From IMG/VR virus record IMGVR_UViG_2537562190_000015: a stretch of 40,105 nucleotides of DNA; one strand, 5' to 3'. Under the pieces are notes generated by a model that made no database searches, was not told the DNA's origin, and saw only the letters and a program-made list of their open reading frames with translations. Position numbers and translations under genes: made by a program. This DNA is from a virus. Its lineage: Duplodnaviria; Heunggongvirae; Uroviricota; Caudoviricetes. This document shows, in pieces, positions 32,906 to 37,520 of the stretch (the first letter of the stretch is position 1; every line of letters begins with the position of its first letter).

Positions 32906-33244
32906 CTATTTCCCTGAATTTACGACGAAACTGTTCGAGCGGGCTGAAGCACTCATGCTCATAGCCTTCGCGGAGGTAGATAACTCGTTGTGTTTCCGGC
33001 TCCCAACGAATGACTCTGACGGGTACTCCGTAGTGATCTTTGAACCAGCGGTTAACTTGTCGCAAAGGACTGTCTCCTTCTGCCGGTTAAAATCACCCAC
33101 AGCCCACTCTGCAAAGCTGTGGGTTACAATTACCCTGCCACCTGGTACATTAACTGCATAGCAATACTCCACCTTCGCTTTTCCACCCGGTACAGGAAGC
33201 GCAATCAGTTGCGAGCGACGGTAGTGTGTTGTTAAACTGTTCAT
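32906..33244 (-). CDS. hypothetical protein (112 aa), translationally coupled between the CII-like and O-like genes
   Basis: Start overlaps the upstream stop; a GAGG lies between its own stop and the O-like ATG; no family recognised; a competing 90-aa antisense ORF exists. Confidence 0.4.
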
Positions 33245-33792
33245 GCGTTAGTTTCTCCACAGTCACGACACGCCACGGCGCCCGGAGCTGCACACTCGCG
33301 GGCGTCATTACTTTCTGAAATGCAAAAAATTTTGTAGACCAGTGCTGCATGCTCCTGCAGCTTCGAAATTGAGAGGTACAGCTCGTCGTTAATTGCTGTC
33401 TTCTCATGCGGTTCCACTACACCGTCTTCAATTGCTGAACGAATCTGTTTTGAATAACTGCCGATCTGTTCAATGACCTCCAGCAGGCGTTGGTTGATAT
33501 CGGCGTTGTCCACATCCTCGACATCAGGAAGAGACACAAAGACGCCATTTGCAGACTGCGCCACAGCGTCAGCAATGAAGTGAGTTCCACCAGCACGTTG
33601 CAAAATCATTGCCCATCCCAGCGGGAAAATCTGATCGCCATCGGCACGAAGGCGGTTAAATAATGCGTTCTCTGTTACATCCAGCCAGTCAGCAGCTTCA
33701 GCGTACCCCCCCGGCAACGCTGCGATAGTTTTTCTGACAGCTTTCACGTACCACTCAGGCTGTTTTTCTACTTTCCAGTGATGCTTACCCAC
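33241..33792 (-). CDS. CII-like / YdaT-like early regulatory protein (183 aa)
   Basis: Sits immediately downstream of cro and overlaps it; family assignment is from position and vague recollection only. Confidence 0.4.
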
Positions 33793-34045
33793 GGTTCACC
33801 TCCTGTTCCTGTGGTTTAAACCCATTCTGGTTTTGGCTAGATTGAAAACGTGCCGGATAAAGAATCTGCATTTCGCTGACTTCACCCTTAAAAAAATTGG
33901 CTAAACGTTCTGCAAGCTCGATAGATGGAATCTGCTCCAGCCTCTCAATACGACTCAACGTCGCTGGATTGACTTGAACACCCGCAGCAACATGCTGCAA
34001 AGTGAAACCATGCGCCTTACGCACATTTCGTAATGGTGATTGCAT
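33785..34045 (-). CDS. cro: Cro-like HTH repressor
   Basis: 86-aa ORF MQSPLRNVRKAHGFTLQHVAAGVQVNPATLSRIERLEQIPSIELAERLANFF…; XRE-type HTH; divergent from cI. Confidence 0.75.
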   Translation of the reverse strand: MQSPLRNVRKAHGFTLQHVAAGVQVNPATLSRIERLEQIPSIELAERLANFFKGEVSEMQILYPARFQSSQNQNGFKPQEQEVNRG

Positions 34046-34142: not shown

Positions 34143-34835
34143 ATGAACATAGGAAACCGAGTCAGACAACTTCGCCAAGCGAAGAACATGAAAATCGCCG
34201 ATCTCGCTGAAGCGATAGGAGTAGATGCGGCGAACATCTCGCGCTTAGAAACGGGTAAGCAAAAACAATTTACCGAACAAACACTGAGTAATATTGCCAA
34301 GAGCTTAGGTGTTGATATTGCTGATCTCTTTACCTCTGCCCACAAAAGTAATACTGTATATAAAAACAGTAATAATGAGGATGTTGCGCAGGTGAAGGAT
34401 GTGTTCCGTATTGAAATGCTGGATATCAGTGCCAGTGCGGGAAATGGCCTTATCCAGGGCGGTGATGTCATTGATGTGATTCATGCCATCGAATACAGAA
34501 CTGATAATGCTGTATCAATGTTCGGCGGACGACCAGCCAATCACATCAAAGTTATCAACGTTCGTGGGGACAGTATGTGTCCAACCATTGAGCCAGGAGA
34601 TCTCATCTTCGTTGATGTCAGCATCAATCAGTTTGATGGTGATGGTATATATGTCTTTGGTTTTGATGACAAAATATACGTTAAAAGACTTCAAATGATT
34701 CCTGACAAACTGCTGGTGATTTCTGATAACCAGATTTACCGTGAATGGGGAATTACTAGCGAAAACGAACACCGATTCATGGTCTTTGGAAAGGTCTTAA
34801 TCAGTCAGTCGCAAACCCTTAAGAGACATAATTAA
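34143..34835 (+). CDS. cI: CI-type prophage repressor (HTH plus S24 LexA-like autopeptidase)
   Basis: 230-aa ORF; N-terminal XRE HTH (KIADLAEAIGVDAANISRLETGK); Ala-Gly cleavage site (SASAGNG); S24 motifs GDSMCPTI (Ser) and KRL (Lys). Confidence 0.9.
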   Translation: MNIGNRVRQLRQAKNMKIADLAEAIGVDAANISRLETGKQKQFTEQTLSNIAKSLGVDIADLFTSAHKSNTVYKNSNNEDVAQVKDVFRIEMLDISASAGNGLIQGGDVIDVIHAIEYRTDNAVSMFGGRPANHIKVINVRGDSMCPTIEPGDLIFVDVSINQFDGDGIYVFGFDDKIYVKRLQMIPDKLLVISDNQIYREWGITSENEHRFMVFGKVLISQSQTLKRHN

Positions 34836-34854
34836 CCTCAATATCCCATCCATC

Positions 34855-34876
34855 GGCCACCGAAAGGTGGCTTTTT
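34855..34876 (+). terminator. intrinsic terminator after cI
   Basis: GGCCACC-gaaa-GGTGGC followed by TTTTT. Confidence 0.6.
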
Positions 34877-34877
34877 A

Positions 34878-34940
34878 TTACCTATAAATTTGCATATCAC
34901 GCAAATATCACTTGCATATCTCGCAATTTAATTTTATCTT
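34878..34940 (+). promoter_or_regulatory. OL operator / candidate pL promoter region
   Basis: TTGCATATCACGCAAATATCACTTGCATATCTCGCAATTTAATTTTATCTT: same TCACGCAA-type half-sites as OR, and a TTGCAT…17 nt…TATCTT -35/-10 candidate. Confidence 0.5.
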
Positions 34941-35100
34941 TTGTTCCAGACCAACTACAGGATTACAACAAAATCTGGTTGCAACACGGTGCATGTGTCG
35001 TAAGCAGTCAGTAAATGTCAAAAACGAACAGGCAGGACGCCCACGAAGTAGCCGCCTGGGGCATATGAAGTCCAGGATGATTCGTTAGCAACAAAAAAGC

Positions 35101-35126
35101 GCCCTACAGGACGCTTAGCTCTTTAA
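35101..35126 (-). terminator. intrinsic terminator of the antisense zinc-ribbon gene
   Basis: Minus strand AAGCGTCC-tgta-GGGCGCTT followed by TTTTTT, 30 bp after the stop at 35155. Confidence 0.55.
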
Positions 35127-35154
35127 CAATCTGGATATCCACAACAGTAGTAAT

Positions 35155-35646
35155 CTACAGATTGCCGTTAAGTTTTCTGGACAACTCCTCAATGGATGGA
35201 GGCGATACGTAATCCGGATTTTTATTCATCAGAAACTTATTTTCACAGTGGAGGCACCTGCTTTTATGAAAAAGCTCATCTTCGCTAACCGGGAATGGTT
35301 GAAGTATCGATACTATCTTTTGTCCAAAACATTTTGGGCAAAGATGCATGGTTATGCTGCCACCGTTCACGATTACCTCCTTCGAGTATACAAAAGTACC
35401 CGACTCAAGTTGGTTAAGGATATAGCCTTCCGTCTGAGCCTCAAAGTTTTCGAATTCTGCAATTTTAGCTTTGAGAGAAGCATTTATTTCTTGATAAGAG
35501 CCCACCAGTTCAACGAGAGACACGCATTCGCGCTGAATAGACGCAAGCTTTGAGTTCAGCTCACCAATAGCCGCATTTACTTCAGCTTGAGTTTTTGCCT
35601 CGTTCATTAGTTTTGCAATCTGGGCTGTTTCACGAATAGCCGTCAT
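35155..35646 (-). CDS. hypothetical coiled-coil plus C-terminal zinc-ribbon protein (~163 aa); candidate lysogen-expressed moron
   Basis: MTAIRETAQIAKLMNEAKTQAEVNAAIGELNSKLASIQRECVSLVELVGSYQEINASLKAKIAEFENFEAQ… then …HLCPKCFGQKIVSILQPFPVSEDELFHKSRCLHCENKF (CxxC…CxxC). The upstream part of the 259-aa ORF-track frame is Arg/Pro-rich and was judged non-coding. Confidence 0.55.
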   Translation of the reverse strand: MTAIRETAQIAKLMNEAKTQAEVNAAIGELNSKLASIQRECVSLVELVGSYQEINASLKAKIAEFENFEAQTEGYILNQLESGTFVYSKEVIVNGGSITMHLCPKCFGQKIVSILQPFPVSEDELFHKSRCLHCENKFLMNKNPDYVSPPSIEELSRKLNGNL

Positions 35647-35946
35647 TGCTGCCGTTAATTCAGCGATCACATTGAATACTCTTATTGTTGTTGGGGATAT
35701 CCAGATTAACCGAATCCTTGTTGTTGGGGAATAACCAGGTCCACCTCGCCTGATGTGGCTAAAAGCAGGCACATAACAGCTAAGTATTTTCAACCAGAGA
35801 GAATCCTTAGCGTTGTGGTGAATGCGGCTCAGCGCACGCGGGTTAAGGTTGAGGCTGACAGTCGACCTTCTGTGGATACCCACCCGCCTGGTGTGCAACC
35901 TTCGCCAGGCACCGGGAGGCACCCGGCACCACAACTTTATGCTGTG

Positions 35947-36003
35947 TGTAGTCCTGGCGGTACCAGTTTGTACCCTTGCTTCCGGCTGGTACCGTCCTTT
36001 TTT
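35947..36003 (+). ncRNA. candidate small RNA 3' end / intrinsic terminator with partial resemblance to DicF
   Basis: 9-bp stem CGGTACCAG…CTGGTACCG followed by TCC TTTTTT; the segment CCTGGCGGTACCAGTTTGTACCC resembles the DicF core TTGGCGGTATCAGTTTTACTCC as recalled from memory. Confidence 0.3.
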
Positions 36004-36004
36004 G

Positions 36005-36091
36005 CAAAACAGAGAAGAGCATCACCGGACGACGGGCTCATAACCCAATCCATCCGGGCGGCTGCCACCGCAGGTGTTCTTCTCTGTTTTG
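36005..36091 (+). other. long imperfect hairpin (14-bp perfect arms CAAAACAGAGAAGA / TCTTCTCTGTTTTG plus 4 bp), candidate RNase III processing site in the early leader
   Basis: Inverted repeat read directly; it encloses a ~46-nt GC-rich loop and sits 50 nt upstream of the first early ORF's RBS. Confidence 0.5.
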
Positions 36092-36140
36092 TGGAGAAAC
36101 CAACCGACCTTGCAAGGTCGATATGATGAGGAGCAGCAAA

Positions 36141-36503
36141 ATGGCTAGCGAACGCAGTACTGATGTGCAGGCATTTATCGGGGAGCTGGACGGCGGCGTA
36201 TTTGAAACCAAAATCGGCGCAGTTCTCAGTGAGGTCGCTTCCGGTGTGATGAACACGAAAACCAAAGGGAAGGTCTCACTCAATCTGGAAATCGAACCGT
36301 TTGATGAGAACCGTGTGAAAATCAAACACAAACTCTCATATGTTCGCCCAACTAACCGCGGGAAAATTTCCGAAGAAGACACCACCGAAACGCCGATGTA
36401 TGTCAATCGCGGTGGTCGCCTGACTATTCTGCAGGAAGACCAGGGACAATTACTGACTCTTGCCGGTGAACCTGACGGAAAACTCCGCGCAGCAGGTCGT
36501 TAA
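36141..36503 (+). CDS. hypothetical early protein (YfdP-like, 120 aa)
   Basis: ATG preceded by GAGGAG at 7-nt spacing; MASERSTDVQAFIGELDGGVFETKIGAVLSEVASGVMNTKTKGKVSLNLEIEPFDENRVKIK…. Confidence 0.6.
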   Translation: MASERSTDVQAFIGELDGGVFETKIGAVLSEVASGVMNTKTKGKVSLNLEIEPFDENRVKIKHKLSYVRPTNRGKISEEDTTETPMYVNRGGRLTILQEDQGQLLTLAGEPDGKLRAAGR

Positions 36504-36568
36504 TATCGTTCGTAATAAACTGATTATTTATCTCATCACTGAATATCTTTATATAGTGAGGACTTATT

Positions 36569-37393
36569 ATGTCTCAGAACTTAGACGCAACCGCAATTAA
36601 TCAAATCCATGCCCTTATTTCTGCTCAGGGTGTTAATGAAATTATCAGTAAGATTGGTGCCGATGCTGTGGCATTGCCTGAGAATTTCCGCATTCATGAT
36701 CTGGAAAAATTTAATTTAAATCGCTTCCGTTTCCGTGGTGCACTTTCCACTGCCAGCATCGATGATTTTACCCGTTATTCTAAAGATCTTGCAGATGAAG
36801 GCACCCGCTGCTTTATCGATGCCGATAATATGCGTGCCGTCAGTGTGCTTAACCTGGGTACTATTGATGAGCCAGGTCACGCAGATAACACTGCCACTCT
36901 CAAACTGAAAAAGACAGCACCGTTCTCTGCTCTGTTGTCTGTTAACGGCGAGCGTAACTCCCAGAAGTCACTGGCAGAATGGATCGAAGACTGGGCCGAC
37001 TACCTTGTGGGCTTTGATGCTAATGGTGACGCCATTCAAGCAACAAAAGCGGCTGCGGCAGTCCGTAAAATCACGATTGAAGCAAACCAGACCGCTGATT
37101 TTGAAGATAATGACTTCAGCGGCAAACGCTCCCTGATGGAGTCTGTCGAAGCGAAGACCAAAGACATTATGCCAGTGGCATTTGAATTTAAATGCGTTCC
37201 GTTTGAAGGTCTGAAAGAACGTCCGTTTAAATTACGCCTCAGCATTATCACTGGCGATCGTCCTGTACTGGTTCTGCGCATTATTCAGCTGGAAGCGGTG
37301 CAGGAAGAAATGGCTAACGAATTTCGTGATCTGCTTGTTGAGAAATTCAAAGACAGCAAAGTAGAAACCTTTATTGGTACTTTCACCGCCTGA
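36569..37393 (+). CDS. hypothetical early protein (YfdQ-like, 274 aa)
   Basis: 274-aa [51 protein letters not shown]…; length and neighbourhood match the CPS-53 yfdQ family as recalled. Confidence 0.6.
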
Positions 37394-37520
37394 TTTCATT
37401 ACTGCAAATGCCCCTGCGGGGGCATTTATGGAAACGTAATTAACTCAATAATCACCGGATGGTGAGGGCTTCCTTTTACCAGAATTCAGCGCGGTGCAGT
37501 GCATATACGTGGAGAACAAA

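Follow-up and report, generated by a model that had tools for sequence, protein, structure and literature searches.

The interval 35680-36140 of a 40,105-nt stretch of DNA from a Caudoviricetes virus (IMG/VR record IMGVR_UViG_2537562190_000015; the whole stretch is referred to here as the window) carries a pseudoknotted RNA of the STnc100/PasD family, followed by an intrinsic terminator and a long hairpin. On balance, we favor reading this interval as a conserved untranslated leader cassette of the early-left (PL) operon, most likely an attenuator or insulator that produces a small RNA (sRNA). The structure is supported, whereas we infer the efficiency of termination, the processing, and the targets. 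The window carries the immunity and early-left region of an N-less lambdoid prophage of the SfV/SfIV/e14/CPS-53 type, and the same cassette is found in about half of E. coli genomes and is annotated in K-12 as the protein gene ymfH.

A pseudoknotted STnc100/PasD-type core

The single meaningful match in a sensitive Rfam scan was STnc100 (RF02076; 40.3 bits, E 3.4e-7), aligned over the full model (positions 1-206) at 35782-36005 with a score under the gathering score of 47; STnc100 was absent from a scan of the window at gathering thresholds. A covariance model built from 23 canonical (type-1) cores only, with window-like sequences excluded (model R1), aligned end to end (positions 1-116 of 116) at 35811-35936 with 62.2 bits (E about 2e-13) and gave 46-60 bits on the cores of SfV, ST64B, phage P1, a Rac-type locus, and e14. 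A second R1 match, at 37397-37504 (14.7 bits, E 0.13), is weak and was not accepted as a core. The minimum free energy (MFE) fold of the leader recovers helices P1, P2, P5, and P6 (Table 1), and against shuffled controls the segment 35782-36005 folds with z = -2.0 on the plus strand and only -0.9 on the minus strand.

An exact 20-nt motif from the 3' part of the core occurs in at least 120 viral contigs, and the 140 instances then collected across all loci comprise 104 distinct versions. These sequences have in common the closing helix P1, the junction AAU, P2 with the loop UNRGC and a bulged base, a variable insert, P5, and P6, and in family members P6 (CCGGG-AGGCA-CCCGG) stacks directly on P1. 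RNAalifold returned the same helices from 23 canonical members, with 9 of 21 pairs compensatory. Across 84 distinct model-aligned sequences, 94.9% of cells are paired compared with 77% in shuffles, the covariation score is 0.426 compared with 0.140 (none of 500 shuffles as high; slid controls at most 0.129), and all five core helices, pseudoknot included, covary through compensatory double changes; for the nested helices the alignment follows a fit to the model, which does not include the pseudoknot. Because the first motif forced P6 to be invariant, the collection was redone with a 5' motif as anchor, and in that set P6 covaries as well, from CCGGG/CCCGG to CCUGG/CCAGG (G-C to U-A), with its loop unchanged. 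While the helices vary freely, several loops and junctions are invariant: GGUGAAU, the P2 loop UNRGC, and the P6 loop AGGCA.

In the pseudoknot, the P5 loop pairs with the segment that directly follows P2, and this pairing exists in many sequence versions: AAGGUUG/CAACCUU in the window, UGGUUAU/AUAACCA in phage P1, and elsewhere CCAGUC/GACUGG, GUGAUACC/GGUAUCAC, and AGACUGACAAA/UUUGUCAGUCU. Pairing averages 6.9 for native partners compared with 5.0 for cross-sequence partners, and in the model-fitted alignment double changes occur at each of the five pairs tested, with 76% of cells paired in spite of register slips. The displayed Rfam STnc100 consensus structure contains no such pseudoknot, and this covariation-supported pairing adds to it. 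We conclude from these sequence comparisons that the core is best described as about 125 nt of RNA with four helices and a pseudoknot, a divergent member of the STnc100/PasD family.

An initial annotation of the interval, made from the letters alone, had named several elements that are all present where it placed them: the stems GCCTGG (35886) with CCAGGC (35905) and CCGGG (35912) with CCCGG (35922), a 9-bp stem of CGGTACCAG (35958) and CTGGTACCG (35986) followed by T6 at 35998-36003, and perfect 14-bp arms at 36005-36018 and 36078-36091, which are part of a helix of about 24 bp when G-U pairs are counted. The first two of these, between 35885 and 35925, were listed as isolated stems, and their membership in an STnc100/PasD-type core with P1, P2, and a pseudoknot was missed. 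The annotation placed the interval correctly, between the antisense gene (minus strand, 35155-35646) and the first early open reading frame (ORF; 36141), and was right that it is GC-rich (local G+C 57-59%, compared with 39-46% in the flanks and 52% in the window overall). Its claim that nearly every frame is open there describes nothing exceptional, with 26 stops in six frames against a window mean of 33 +/- 10 (27th percentile). Its broader claim, a structured non-coding RNA in an immunity-proximal early operon, is borne out.

Several further structures were considered. Extended pairing of P1 with the linker, seen in the MFE fold (35794-35810), is not conserved in ST64B by manual comparison; inspection revealed no alternative pairing for a riboswitch-like competition between P1 and the terminator; and ARAGORN finds no tRNA-like or tmRNA-like RNA. 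A candidate small H-type pseudoknot upstream of the core, module M2, is conserved 5' of type-2 cores (the promoter-less form found in the window) in SfV-type and Rac-type leaders, with the Rac variant CCACC/GGUGG and CCCGG/CCGGG, and short BLAST matches to it occur in Klebsiella, Hafnia, and Providencia phages. Support for M2 is weak because there are just two to three sequence variants.

The annotated gene ymfH

A spurious 123-codon ORF runs through the cassette and is the homologue of the K-12 e14 coding sequence (CDS) 'ymfH'. Its stretch contains 1-nt indels among the window, e14, SfV, and ST64B; e14 YmfH and the window ORF are in different frames for about 25 residues before the shared frame returns; and ST64B has no ORF equivalent to ymfH. 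Because the frame of the ORF changes between homologues, we regard the interval as not coding, and the sequence evidence argues that e14 'ymfH' and its RefSeq 'hypothetical protein' homologues are structured RNA, not protein. The K-12 gene, and with it the 'hypothetical proteins' in matching E. coli genomes, would accordingly be relabelled. In the e14 prophage (L126, 3576-3887), the CDS ymfH consists of core, terminator, and long hairpin and lies before xisE-intE. The e14 ORF begins exactly at the P1 strand GUGGUG, and the e14 copy carries two lesions in P6, one deleted loop base and one G-to-A change in an otherwise fixed hairpin.

A clone of e14 ymfH triggers the retron-Sen2 toxin RcaT, which was read by the authors as a protein effect and not followed up (bioRxiv 10.1101/2020.06.22.160242). 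Because this clone holds core, terminator, and hairpin, the triggering could be an RNA effect, a reinterpretation that we offer as speculation. Our search of the literature on ymfH found no transcript information.

Linker, terminator, and the resemblance to DicF

The linker between core and terminator is conserved in SfV, e14, ST64B (AUUGCUGUGUGAAGUC), and the Rac-type locus L135. Its string at 35940-35953, UGCUGUGUGUAGUC, also occurs unchanged within the conserved 3' part of RprA, and on this identity we regard it as a candidate seed, a lead. The Rfam RprA consensus aligns over AUUGCUGUGUGUAGUC in L135 with 28 bits, below threshold.

The terminator hairpin folds at -22.7 kcal/mol (z = -2.9); with a loop longer than 8 nt, it escaped a consensus terminator scan. 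A terminator begins 9-39 nt after the core motif in 106 of the 140 family instances. ST64B has an unrelated stem sequence and U5 at the same position, and since the position is kept with an unrelated stem, termination there appears to be selected. The terminator of the initial annotation, a hairpin with a U-tract, therefore stands.

DicF is an antisense RNA against ftsZ, from the defective lambdoid prophage Qin, and is freed from a polycistronic transcript by RNase E together with RNase III. The initial annotation had likened the terminator region to DicF, and a likeness does exist at the level of sequence; membership does not follow from it. The Rfam covariance model for DicF (RF00039) has a gathering score of 48 bits and gives 35943-35997 only 15.7 (E = 1.5 when 801 nt are searched), and the window has the loop GUUUGUACCC in place of DicF AGUUUUACUCCG, so that the anti-ftsZ segment is absent. 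DicF AGUUUUACUCCG pairs with the ribosome-binding region of ftsZ, CGGAGAGAAACU, at -12 to -1. The best pairing of the window to ftsZ -30 to +6 scores 6.5, falls at another site, and is equalled by 98% of shuffles, while DicF and L135 both score 9.5 at -12/-11 to -1; a whole-molecule RNAduplex comparison with the ftsZ leader does not discriminate, since even genuine DicF reaches only z = -0.9. The Rac-type relative at L135:5721-5776 scores 39.1 bits on the DicF model, below the threshold of 48, and the pairing of its loop AGUUUUUUUCU with the Shine-Dalgarno region of ftsZ exactly matches that of DicF AGUUUUACUCCG. The order in L135 is the DicF-like hairpin, a type-2 core, and then the FtsZ inhibitor gene kilR. 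The L135 hairpin would be an unannotated DicF-like RNA beside a second division inhibitor. In the window, the 'DicF-like' hairpin is the 3' terminator module of an STnc100/PasD-type unit.

The long hairpin

The long hairpin has a lower stem of about 24 bp, 14 of them perfect (36005-36018 with 36078-36091), and the region 36000-36141 folds at -57.2 kcal/mol (z = -5.24; none of 200 shuffles as good). The hairpin is almost unchanged in 19 variants; ST64B carries a compensatory double change (AGAGAAG/CUUCUCU to AGAAAAG/CUUUUCU), and e14 carries single changes that preserve pairing. The helix exceeds the roughly 20 bp of near-perfect double-stranded RNA, or two turns, associated with RNase III, and as a modeled structure it would suit RNase III cleavage. 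The RNase III-type shape noted in the initial annotation thus holds, with cleavage itself putative.

Joins to different downstream genes (yfdP, xisE, and others) fall just 3' of the long hairpin. Because the downstream genes switch at this point, core, terminator, and hairpin appear to move as one leader cassette. Phages of the mEp460/cdtI/Stx2c type retain the terminator and long hairpin; mEp460 has a degenerate core (21 bits) 5' of them, and the R1 search gave no core match at the cdtI locus.

Two forms of the family

The STnc100/PasD family has two forms: autonomous genes with their own promoter and terminator, and promoter-less domains within early-operon leaders. In the canonical type-1 copies, P2 is CCCC/GGGG and a sigma-70 promoter (TTGACn-17-TGnTAAAT) ends about 7 nt 5' of P1. 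In the type-2 form of the window, P2 is GCGG/CGC. Sequence comparison shows no type-1-like promoter in the window, SfV, e14, ST64B, phage P1, or Rac-type copies; a promoter scan of 34700-36700 found no promoter-like site, and weak -10-like hexamers read by eye as a possible promoter of the leader itself are not conserved.

Canonical members are known between Q and the lysis genes or beside stx (PMC12370729; bioRxiv 10.64898/2026.05.13.724894). PasD has been detected on Northern blots and has Hfq-dependent stability, and RIL-seq groups it with ordinary Hfq-bound base-pairing sRNAs (PMC8550237). EDL933 has 11 transcribed STnc100 copies, one of them verified by Northern blot (PMC5331693). The IMG/VR contigs L015, L025, L034, and L073 also contain 3-5 STnc100-type genes in tandem, repeated every 255 nt or so and each equipped with its own promoter and terminator.

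Type-2 cores occur in leaders of the SfV/e14/ST64B type, in Rac-type leaders 5' of kilR, and in the ban operon of phage P1. The core portion of the STnc100 model has further matches, one in the early-left leader of ST64B and the other between upl and tciA in the P1 ban operon. The core of phage P1 (L004, 2001-2126; 57 bits with R1) is absent from the annotation of the P1 record, and in the same operon a 'dicF-like region' is annotated and three tRNA genes are present. The core lies just 3' of a gene in the opposite orientation in e14 (ymfI), the window (the phrog_1244 gene), and phage P1 (upl-plp). Rac-type leaders likewise have the opposite-strand gene sieB upstream, with M2 and the DicF-like hairpin between sieB and the core, and in L135 the core lies 3' of the DicF-like terminator, directly before an ORF. 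Because the DicF-like hairpin lies upstream of the core there, leader modules appear to have been shuffled. Our search of the literature on kilR/sieB sRNAs found no transcript information.

The family is thus extended to early-left leaders before xis-int, kilR, or yfdP and to a P1 ban copy before tciA. In K-12, the same cassette stands 5' of xisE-intE in e14 and a rearranged version stands 5' of kilR in Rac, placements that fit a role in gating host-toxic or excision genes. Of 5,426 complete E. coli genomes, 2,780 match the leader, 1,823 of them across 80% or more of its length, and the Rac-type leader (L135, 5560-5960) is found at a coverage of at least 80% in 1,772 of the 5,426.

Element A and antitermination

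RNA-based antitermination is plausible in this phage because it is lambdoid and N-less, and no N-like gene was seen, as the initial annotation reported. Its suggestion of a put-like element inside the interval did not hold up: the interval lies about 860 nt from PL, and neither BLAST nor covariance models link it to HK022 put. We found nothing put-like in 35680-36140 by a reverse search with model R2 (below) and by inspection, no put-derived covariance model having been run, and none of the 21 records that BLAST returned as relatives of putL is SfV-like. Put elements, whose antitermination requires the zinc-binding domain in the beta-prime subunit of RNA polymerase, lie at the start of the early transcript, where the flagged interval does not lie and where another conserved RNA, which we call element A, does.

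Element A is a 72-nt three-way-junction RNA found in 51 phage records from seven or more genera, including phages of Escherichia, Salmonella, Yersinia, Pectobacterium, Pantoea, Klebsiella, and Aeromonas and a T5-like Providencia phage. In the other phages it always lies 15-30 nt 3' of an early sigma-70 promoter. Of its 14 pairs, 9 are compensatory, and in 26 loci it lies 340-1030 nt 5' of a type-2 core. A covariance model of element A (R2) scores 94.5 bits on the window and, even with filters switched off and E values as high as 10 allowed, gave no match to HK022 putL or putR; element A has no Rfam match. A small Arg-rich ORF in its place was rejected, since inspection finds no start codon after the promoter and the covariation of the stems alters the peptide. 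If the operon has processive antitermination, element A would, judging from its conservation and position, be a better candidate for it than the flagged interval. At most it would resemble put in function; membership in the put family is not detectable.

Genomic setting

The closest phage records to the window are phages induced from ECOR13 (99.8% identity), followed by SfIV, SfV, SfII, and mEp460-type phages. Mosaic breakpoints relative to the nearest phages lie at about 35687, 35741, and 35955, and phage homology begins at 35687 in some phages and at 35741 in others. Downstream of the interval, the plus strand carries yfdP-like, DUF2303/yfdQ-like, and HD-phosphatase genes, further small genes, xis, and int. 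The first early-left gene, starting with the ATG at 36141, is yfdP-like (phrog_204; PHROG match 1.2e-49; RefSeq label yfdP).

The operator 17-mer of the cI-cro intergenic region, ATTTGCTTATCACGCAA, recurs in a repeat search at the two OL copies with 94% and 82% identity, and because it recurs there we place PL at about 34890-34945. The promoter that the initial annotation had implicitly set beside the leader is thus moved upstream. The predicted PL was missed by a strict consensus promoter scan; its distance to the flagged interval is about 730-860 nt. Because the first early ORF begins only at 36141, the PL leader would be about 1.2 kb of untranslated RNA.

The minus-strand moron within this leader encodes a 163-aa product of unknown function (phrog_1244) with an N-terminal coiled coil and two CxxC pairs, and its slot is that of sieB in Rac, ymfI in e14, and upl-plp in phage P1. 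Three copies of a repeat of about 26-33 nt (TTGTTGTTGGGGAWAWCCAGATT) flank the moron and coincide with mosaic breakpoints, one of them an inverted copy at 35128-35153 (pair I1, 26 nt, 85% complementary); they may mark the limits within which the moron recombines or is exchanged. A hairpin, GCCCCUGCGGGGGC, with its flank lies 3' of the yfdQ-like gene on the plus strand (37410-37450) and also directly 3' of the long leader hairpin in L193, L122, and L054. Because this flank joins the leader hairpin directly in those three loci, they appear to be phages without yfdP-yfdQ, and the recurrence of GCCCCUGCGGGGGC places mosaic joints at small hairpins. IS009 RNA (Rfam RF02111), full length at 132-330 on the minus strand (224 bits, E 4.5e-55), is the sole Rfam family above its gathering score in the entire window.

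Table 1. Features of the leader cassette and its surroundings in the window.
Feature	Position	Strand	Remarks
STnc100/PasD-type RNA core	35811-35936	+	promoter-less 'type 2'
Core P1	35812-35820 with 35927-35935	+	
Core junction AAU	35821-35823	+	
Core P2	35824-35828 with 35834-35839	+	A35836 bulged; loop UCAGC
Core pseudoknot	35845-35851 with 35896-35902	+	AAGGUUG with CAACCUU
Core P5	35886-35891 with 35905-35910	+	
Core P6	35912-35916 with 35922-35926	+	CCGGG, loop AGGCA, CCCGG
Linker	35936-35955	+	no pairing in core or terminator helices; includes UGCUGUGUGUAGUC (35940-35953)
Intrinsic terminator	35956-36003	+	DicF-like architecture; stem and U6 tract (35998-36003)
Terminator stem	35956-35966 with 35986-35996	+	GGCGGUACCAG with CUGGUACCGUC; loop about 15-19 nt
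Long hairpin, candidate RNase III site	36000-36096	+	97 nt; 5' arm starts in terminator U-tract
Spurious ORF, 123 codons	35755-36126	+	homologue of K-12 e14 CDS 'ymfH'; overlaps core, terminator, and long hairpin
Candidate H-type pseudoknot, module M2	35741-35777	+	small; then conserved CACAUAAC
M2 S1	35741-35744 with 35755-35758	+	CCAC with GUGG
M2 S2	35749-35752 with 35766-35769	+	CCUG with CAGG
Start region of first early gene	36105-36143	+	small hairpin CGACCUUGCAAGGUCG 36105-36120, Shine-Dalgarno GAGGAG 36128-36133, ATG 36141; from fold and ORF list
Direct repeat, about 33 nt (TTGTTGTTGGGGAWAWCCAG...)	35679-35711, 35712-35745	+	two copies; repeat families D2/D3
Moron (phrog_1244)	35155-35646	-	antisense to PL transcript; own terminator 35097-35116
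Element A	35021-35092	+	conserved 72-nt three-way-junction RNA at start of PL transcript; context, outside flagged interval
Predicted PL	34911-34916 (-35), 34934-34939 (-10)	+	TTGCAT, TATCTT; read by eye
OL operator copies	34888-34904, 34910-34926	+	directly after cI terminator; context, outside flagged interval
cI-like repressor	34143-34835	+	
cro	33785-34045	-	
CII-family gene	33241-33792	-	

Proposed role and alternatives

If the cassette is an sRNA-producing attenuator or insulator, transcripts would start at PL about 860 nt upstream, run antisense through the moron, and fold the core as it emerges. A large share of polymerases would stop at the terminator and release an STnc100-like RNA in which a structured 5' domain is followed by UGCUGUGUGUAGUC as a free linker and by a U-tailed terminator hairpin, which would be the standard layout of an Hfq-dependent sRNA. 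The terminator would hold off the early-left genes behind it, yfdP through xis-int in the window and xis-int directly in e14, unless transcription is heavy or resistant to termination. RNA from read-through would form the long hairpin, which RNase III would probably cut, splitting the sRNA part from the mRNA, and the cut would set the stability and translation of the first gene.

Several points weigh against this proposal. We infer the 5' end of the transcript, the efficiency of termination, and the RNase III cut at this locus, and with a loop as large as 15-19 nt the terminator may be inefficient. The Rac-type core lies after a DicF-like terminator, directly before an ORF, and because of this reversal the order of core and then terminator is not obligatory and the core may act alone. 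Loops, junctions, and a pseudoknot as conserved as these are unusual for a mere base-pairing sRNA scaffold, and so strongly conserved a fold leaves room for a more specific activity. Finally, because the P6 hairpin of e14 carries lesions, data from K-12 may not transfer.

Among the alternatives, that of a small YmfH-family protein, as annotated in K-12 e14 and many RefSeq genomes, can draw on the existence of a 123-codon open frame (35755-36126) and on the RefSeq labels of the homologous stretch, ymfH or 'hypothetical protein'. Single-base indels between close homologues with a frame switch of about 25 residues, the lack of an ORF in ST64B, substitutions that keep RNA pairs, and an intrinsic terminator inside the supposed gene make it extremely improbable. 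The initial annotation would have 35953-35975 and the hairpin be a DicF homologue, cut from the early operon as an antisense repressor of ftsZ. Such a homologue would share with DicF its architecture of a free 5' stretch, long hairpin, and U-tail, the string UGGCGGUAyCAGUUU, and an operon of the kind that holds Qin dicF; it would also fit a graded series in which the Rac-type hairpin reaches 39.1 bits with an anti-ftsZ loop, and the 'dicF-like region' annotated in the P1 operon with a type-2 core. Set against a score of 15.7 instead of 48 bits (E = 1.5), the loop GUUUGUACCC rather than AGUUUUACUCCG, and an ftsZ pairing of 6.5 at another site, this is very unlikely, and for the window it is already largely refuted.

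Other alternatives accept the STnc100-type domain and assign it a different activity. It might be a cis-acting, RNA-only processive antiterminator, put-like in function, that allows reading through the terminator and the N-less early-left operon: there is no N-like gene, Rho should have access to the untranslated leader of about 1.2 kb, the domain lies immediately 5' (about 20 nt) of the single strong intrinsic terminator in the path of the operon, it occurs within the long P1 ban operon as well, and its fold is conserved far beyond the needs of a base-pairing sRNA. Canonical members are stand-alone genes that accumulate as discrete terminated RNAs (PMC8550237; PMC5331693), so that their terminator works despite the domain; the Rac-type domain lies downstream of the terminator, and sequence and covariance models reveal no similarity to HK022 put. 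We consider antitermination by this domain unlikely. It is also unlikely, in our view, that the pseudoknotted domain binds a protein or ligand, acting for example as a decoy, sponge, or sensor of a host or defense factor, with its location only a means of expression. Invariant loops and junctions (GGUGAAU, UNRGC, and AGGCA) amid covarying helices would be explained in this way, as would the high copy number, with arrays of 3-5 and 11 copies in EDL933 (PMC5331693), the variety of contexts (late region, early-left leaders, and the P1 ban operon), and the triggering of retron-Sen2 RcaT by the e14 'ymfH' clone with core, terminator, and hairpin (bioRxiv 10.1101/2020.06.22.160242). Opposed to this are the lack of a known partner, the place of PasD among ordinary Hfq-bound base-pairing sRNAs by RIL-seq (PMC8550237), the damaged P6 hairpin of the e14 copy, and the authors' interpretation of the retron trigger as a protein effect. 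A bolder version, which we hold to be a tentative idea of rather low probability, is that the domain binds a machine (RNA polymerase, Rho, a ribonuclease, or an anti-phage system), that together with element A it forms an all-RNA substitute for N/nut, and that the retron-Sen2 'ymfH' trigger is its effect; the domain would be embedded for this purpose in the N-less SfV, e14, ST64B, and Rac prophages and in the P1 ban operon.

The preferred reading, an sRNA-producing attenuator or insulator, yields a testable picture of early-left gating in N-less lambdoid prophages, with a terminator in an untranslated leader of about 1.2 kb and a new RNA after PL. Should the fold bind polymerase or a defense factor, it would represent a new class of phage regulatory RNA; should it bind neither, it would be one more variant of a prophage sRNA.

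Relation to known systems

The cassette resembles several known RNAs in part. With RprA (RF00034) it shares the 14-nt UGCUGUGUGUAGUC immediately 5' of a terminator hairpin; there is no further similarity, and the RprA covariance model gives nothing on the window. With DicF the window shares the string UGGCGGUAyCAGUUU, a place in the immunity-proximal early operon of a lambdoid prophage, and a layout in which a free 5' segment leads into a long hairpin with a U-tail; unlike DicF, it scores only 15.7 bits on the DicF model, has no anti-ftsZ loop, and has a hairpin that ends a larger STnc100-type RNA. HK022 is, like the phage in the window, an N-less lambdoid phage, and element A resembles putL in being structured, about 70 nt long, and at the start of the PL transcript. 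Put and element A have the strings ACGAAC..GGC and CAGGAUGA in common, a likeness that did not survive testing with a covariance model; element A is a three-way junction whereas put is two stem-loops, and the flagged interval is dissimilar to put and far from PL.

The lambda N leader has an RNase III site in a long hairpin that separates the early-leader signals from the start codon of the first PL gene. The hairpin of the window is similarly placed, on a stem long enough for RNase III. The two are unrelated in sequence, the window hairpin follows a terminator and overlaps its U-tract, and cleavage in the window is putative. The closest relation is to STnc100/PasD itself. The window differs from canonical members in scoring below the Rfam threshold, in its P2 (GCGG/CGC, not CCCC/GGGG), in having no sigma-70 promoter abutting P1, and in its location in an early-left leader rather than in the Q-lysis interval or beside stx. 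It shares with them the GGUG/CACC closing helix, the AAU junction, the P2 loop UNRGC, P5, the invariant P6 loop AGGCA, a terminator about 25 nt downstream, and a prophage-borne, multi-copy distribution.

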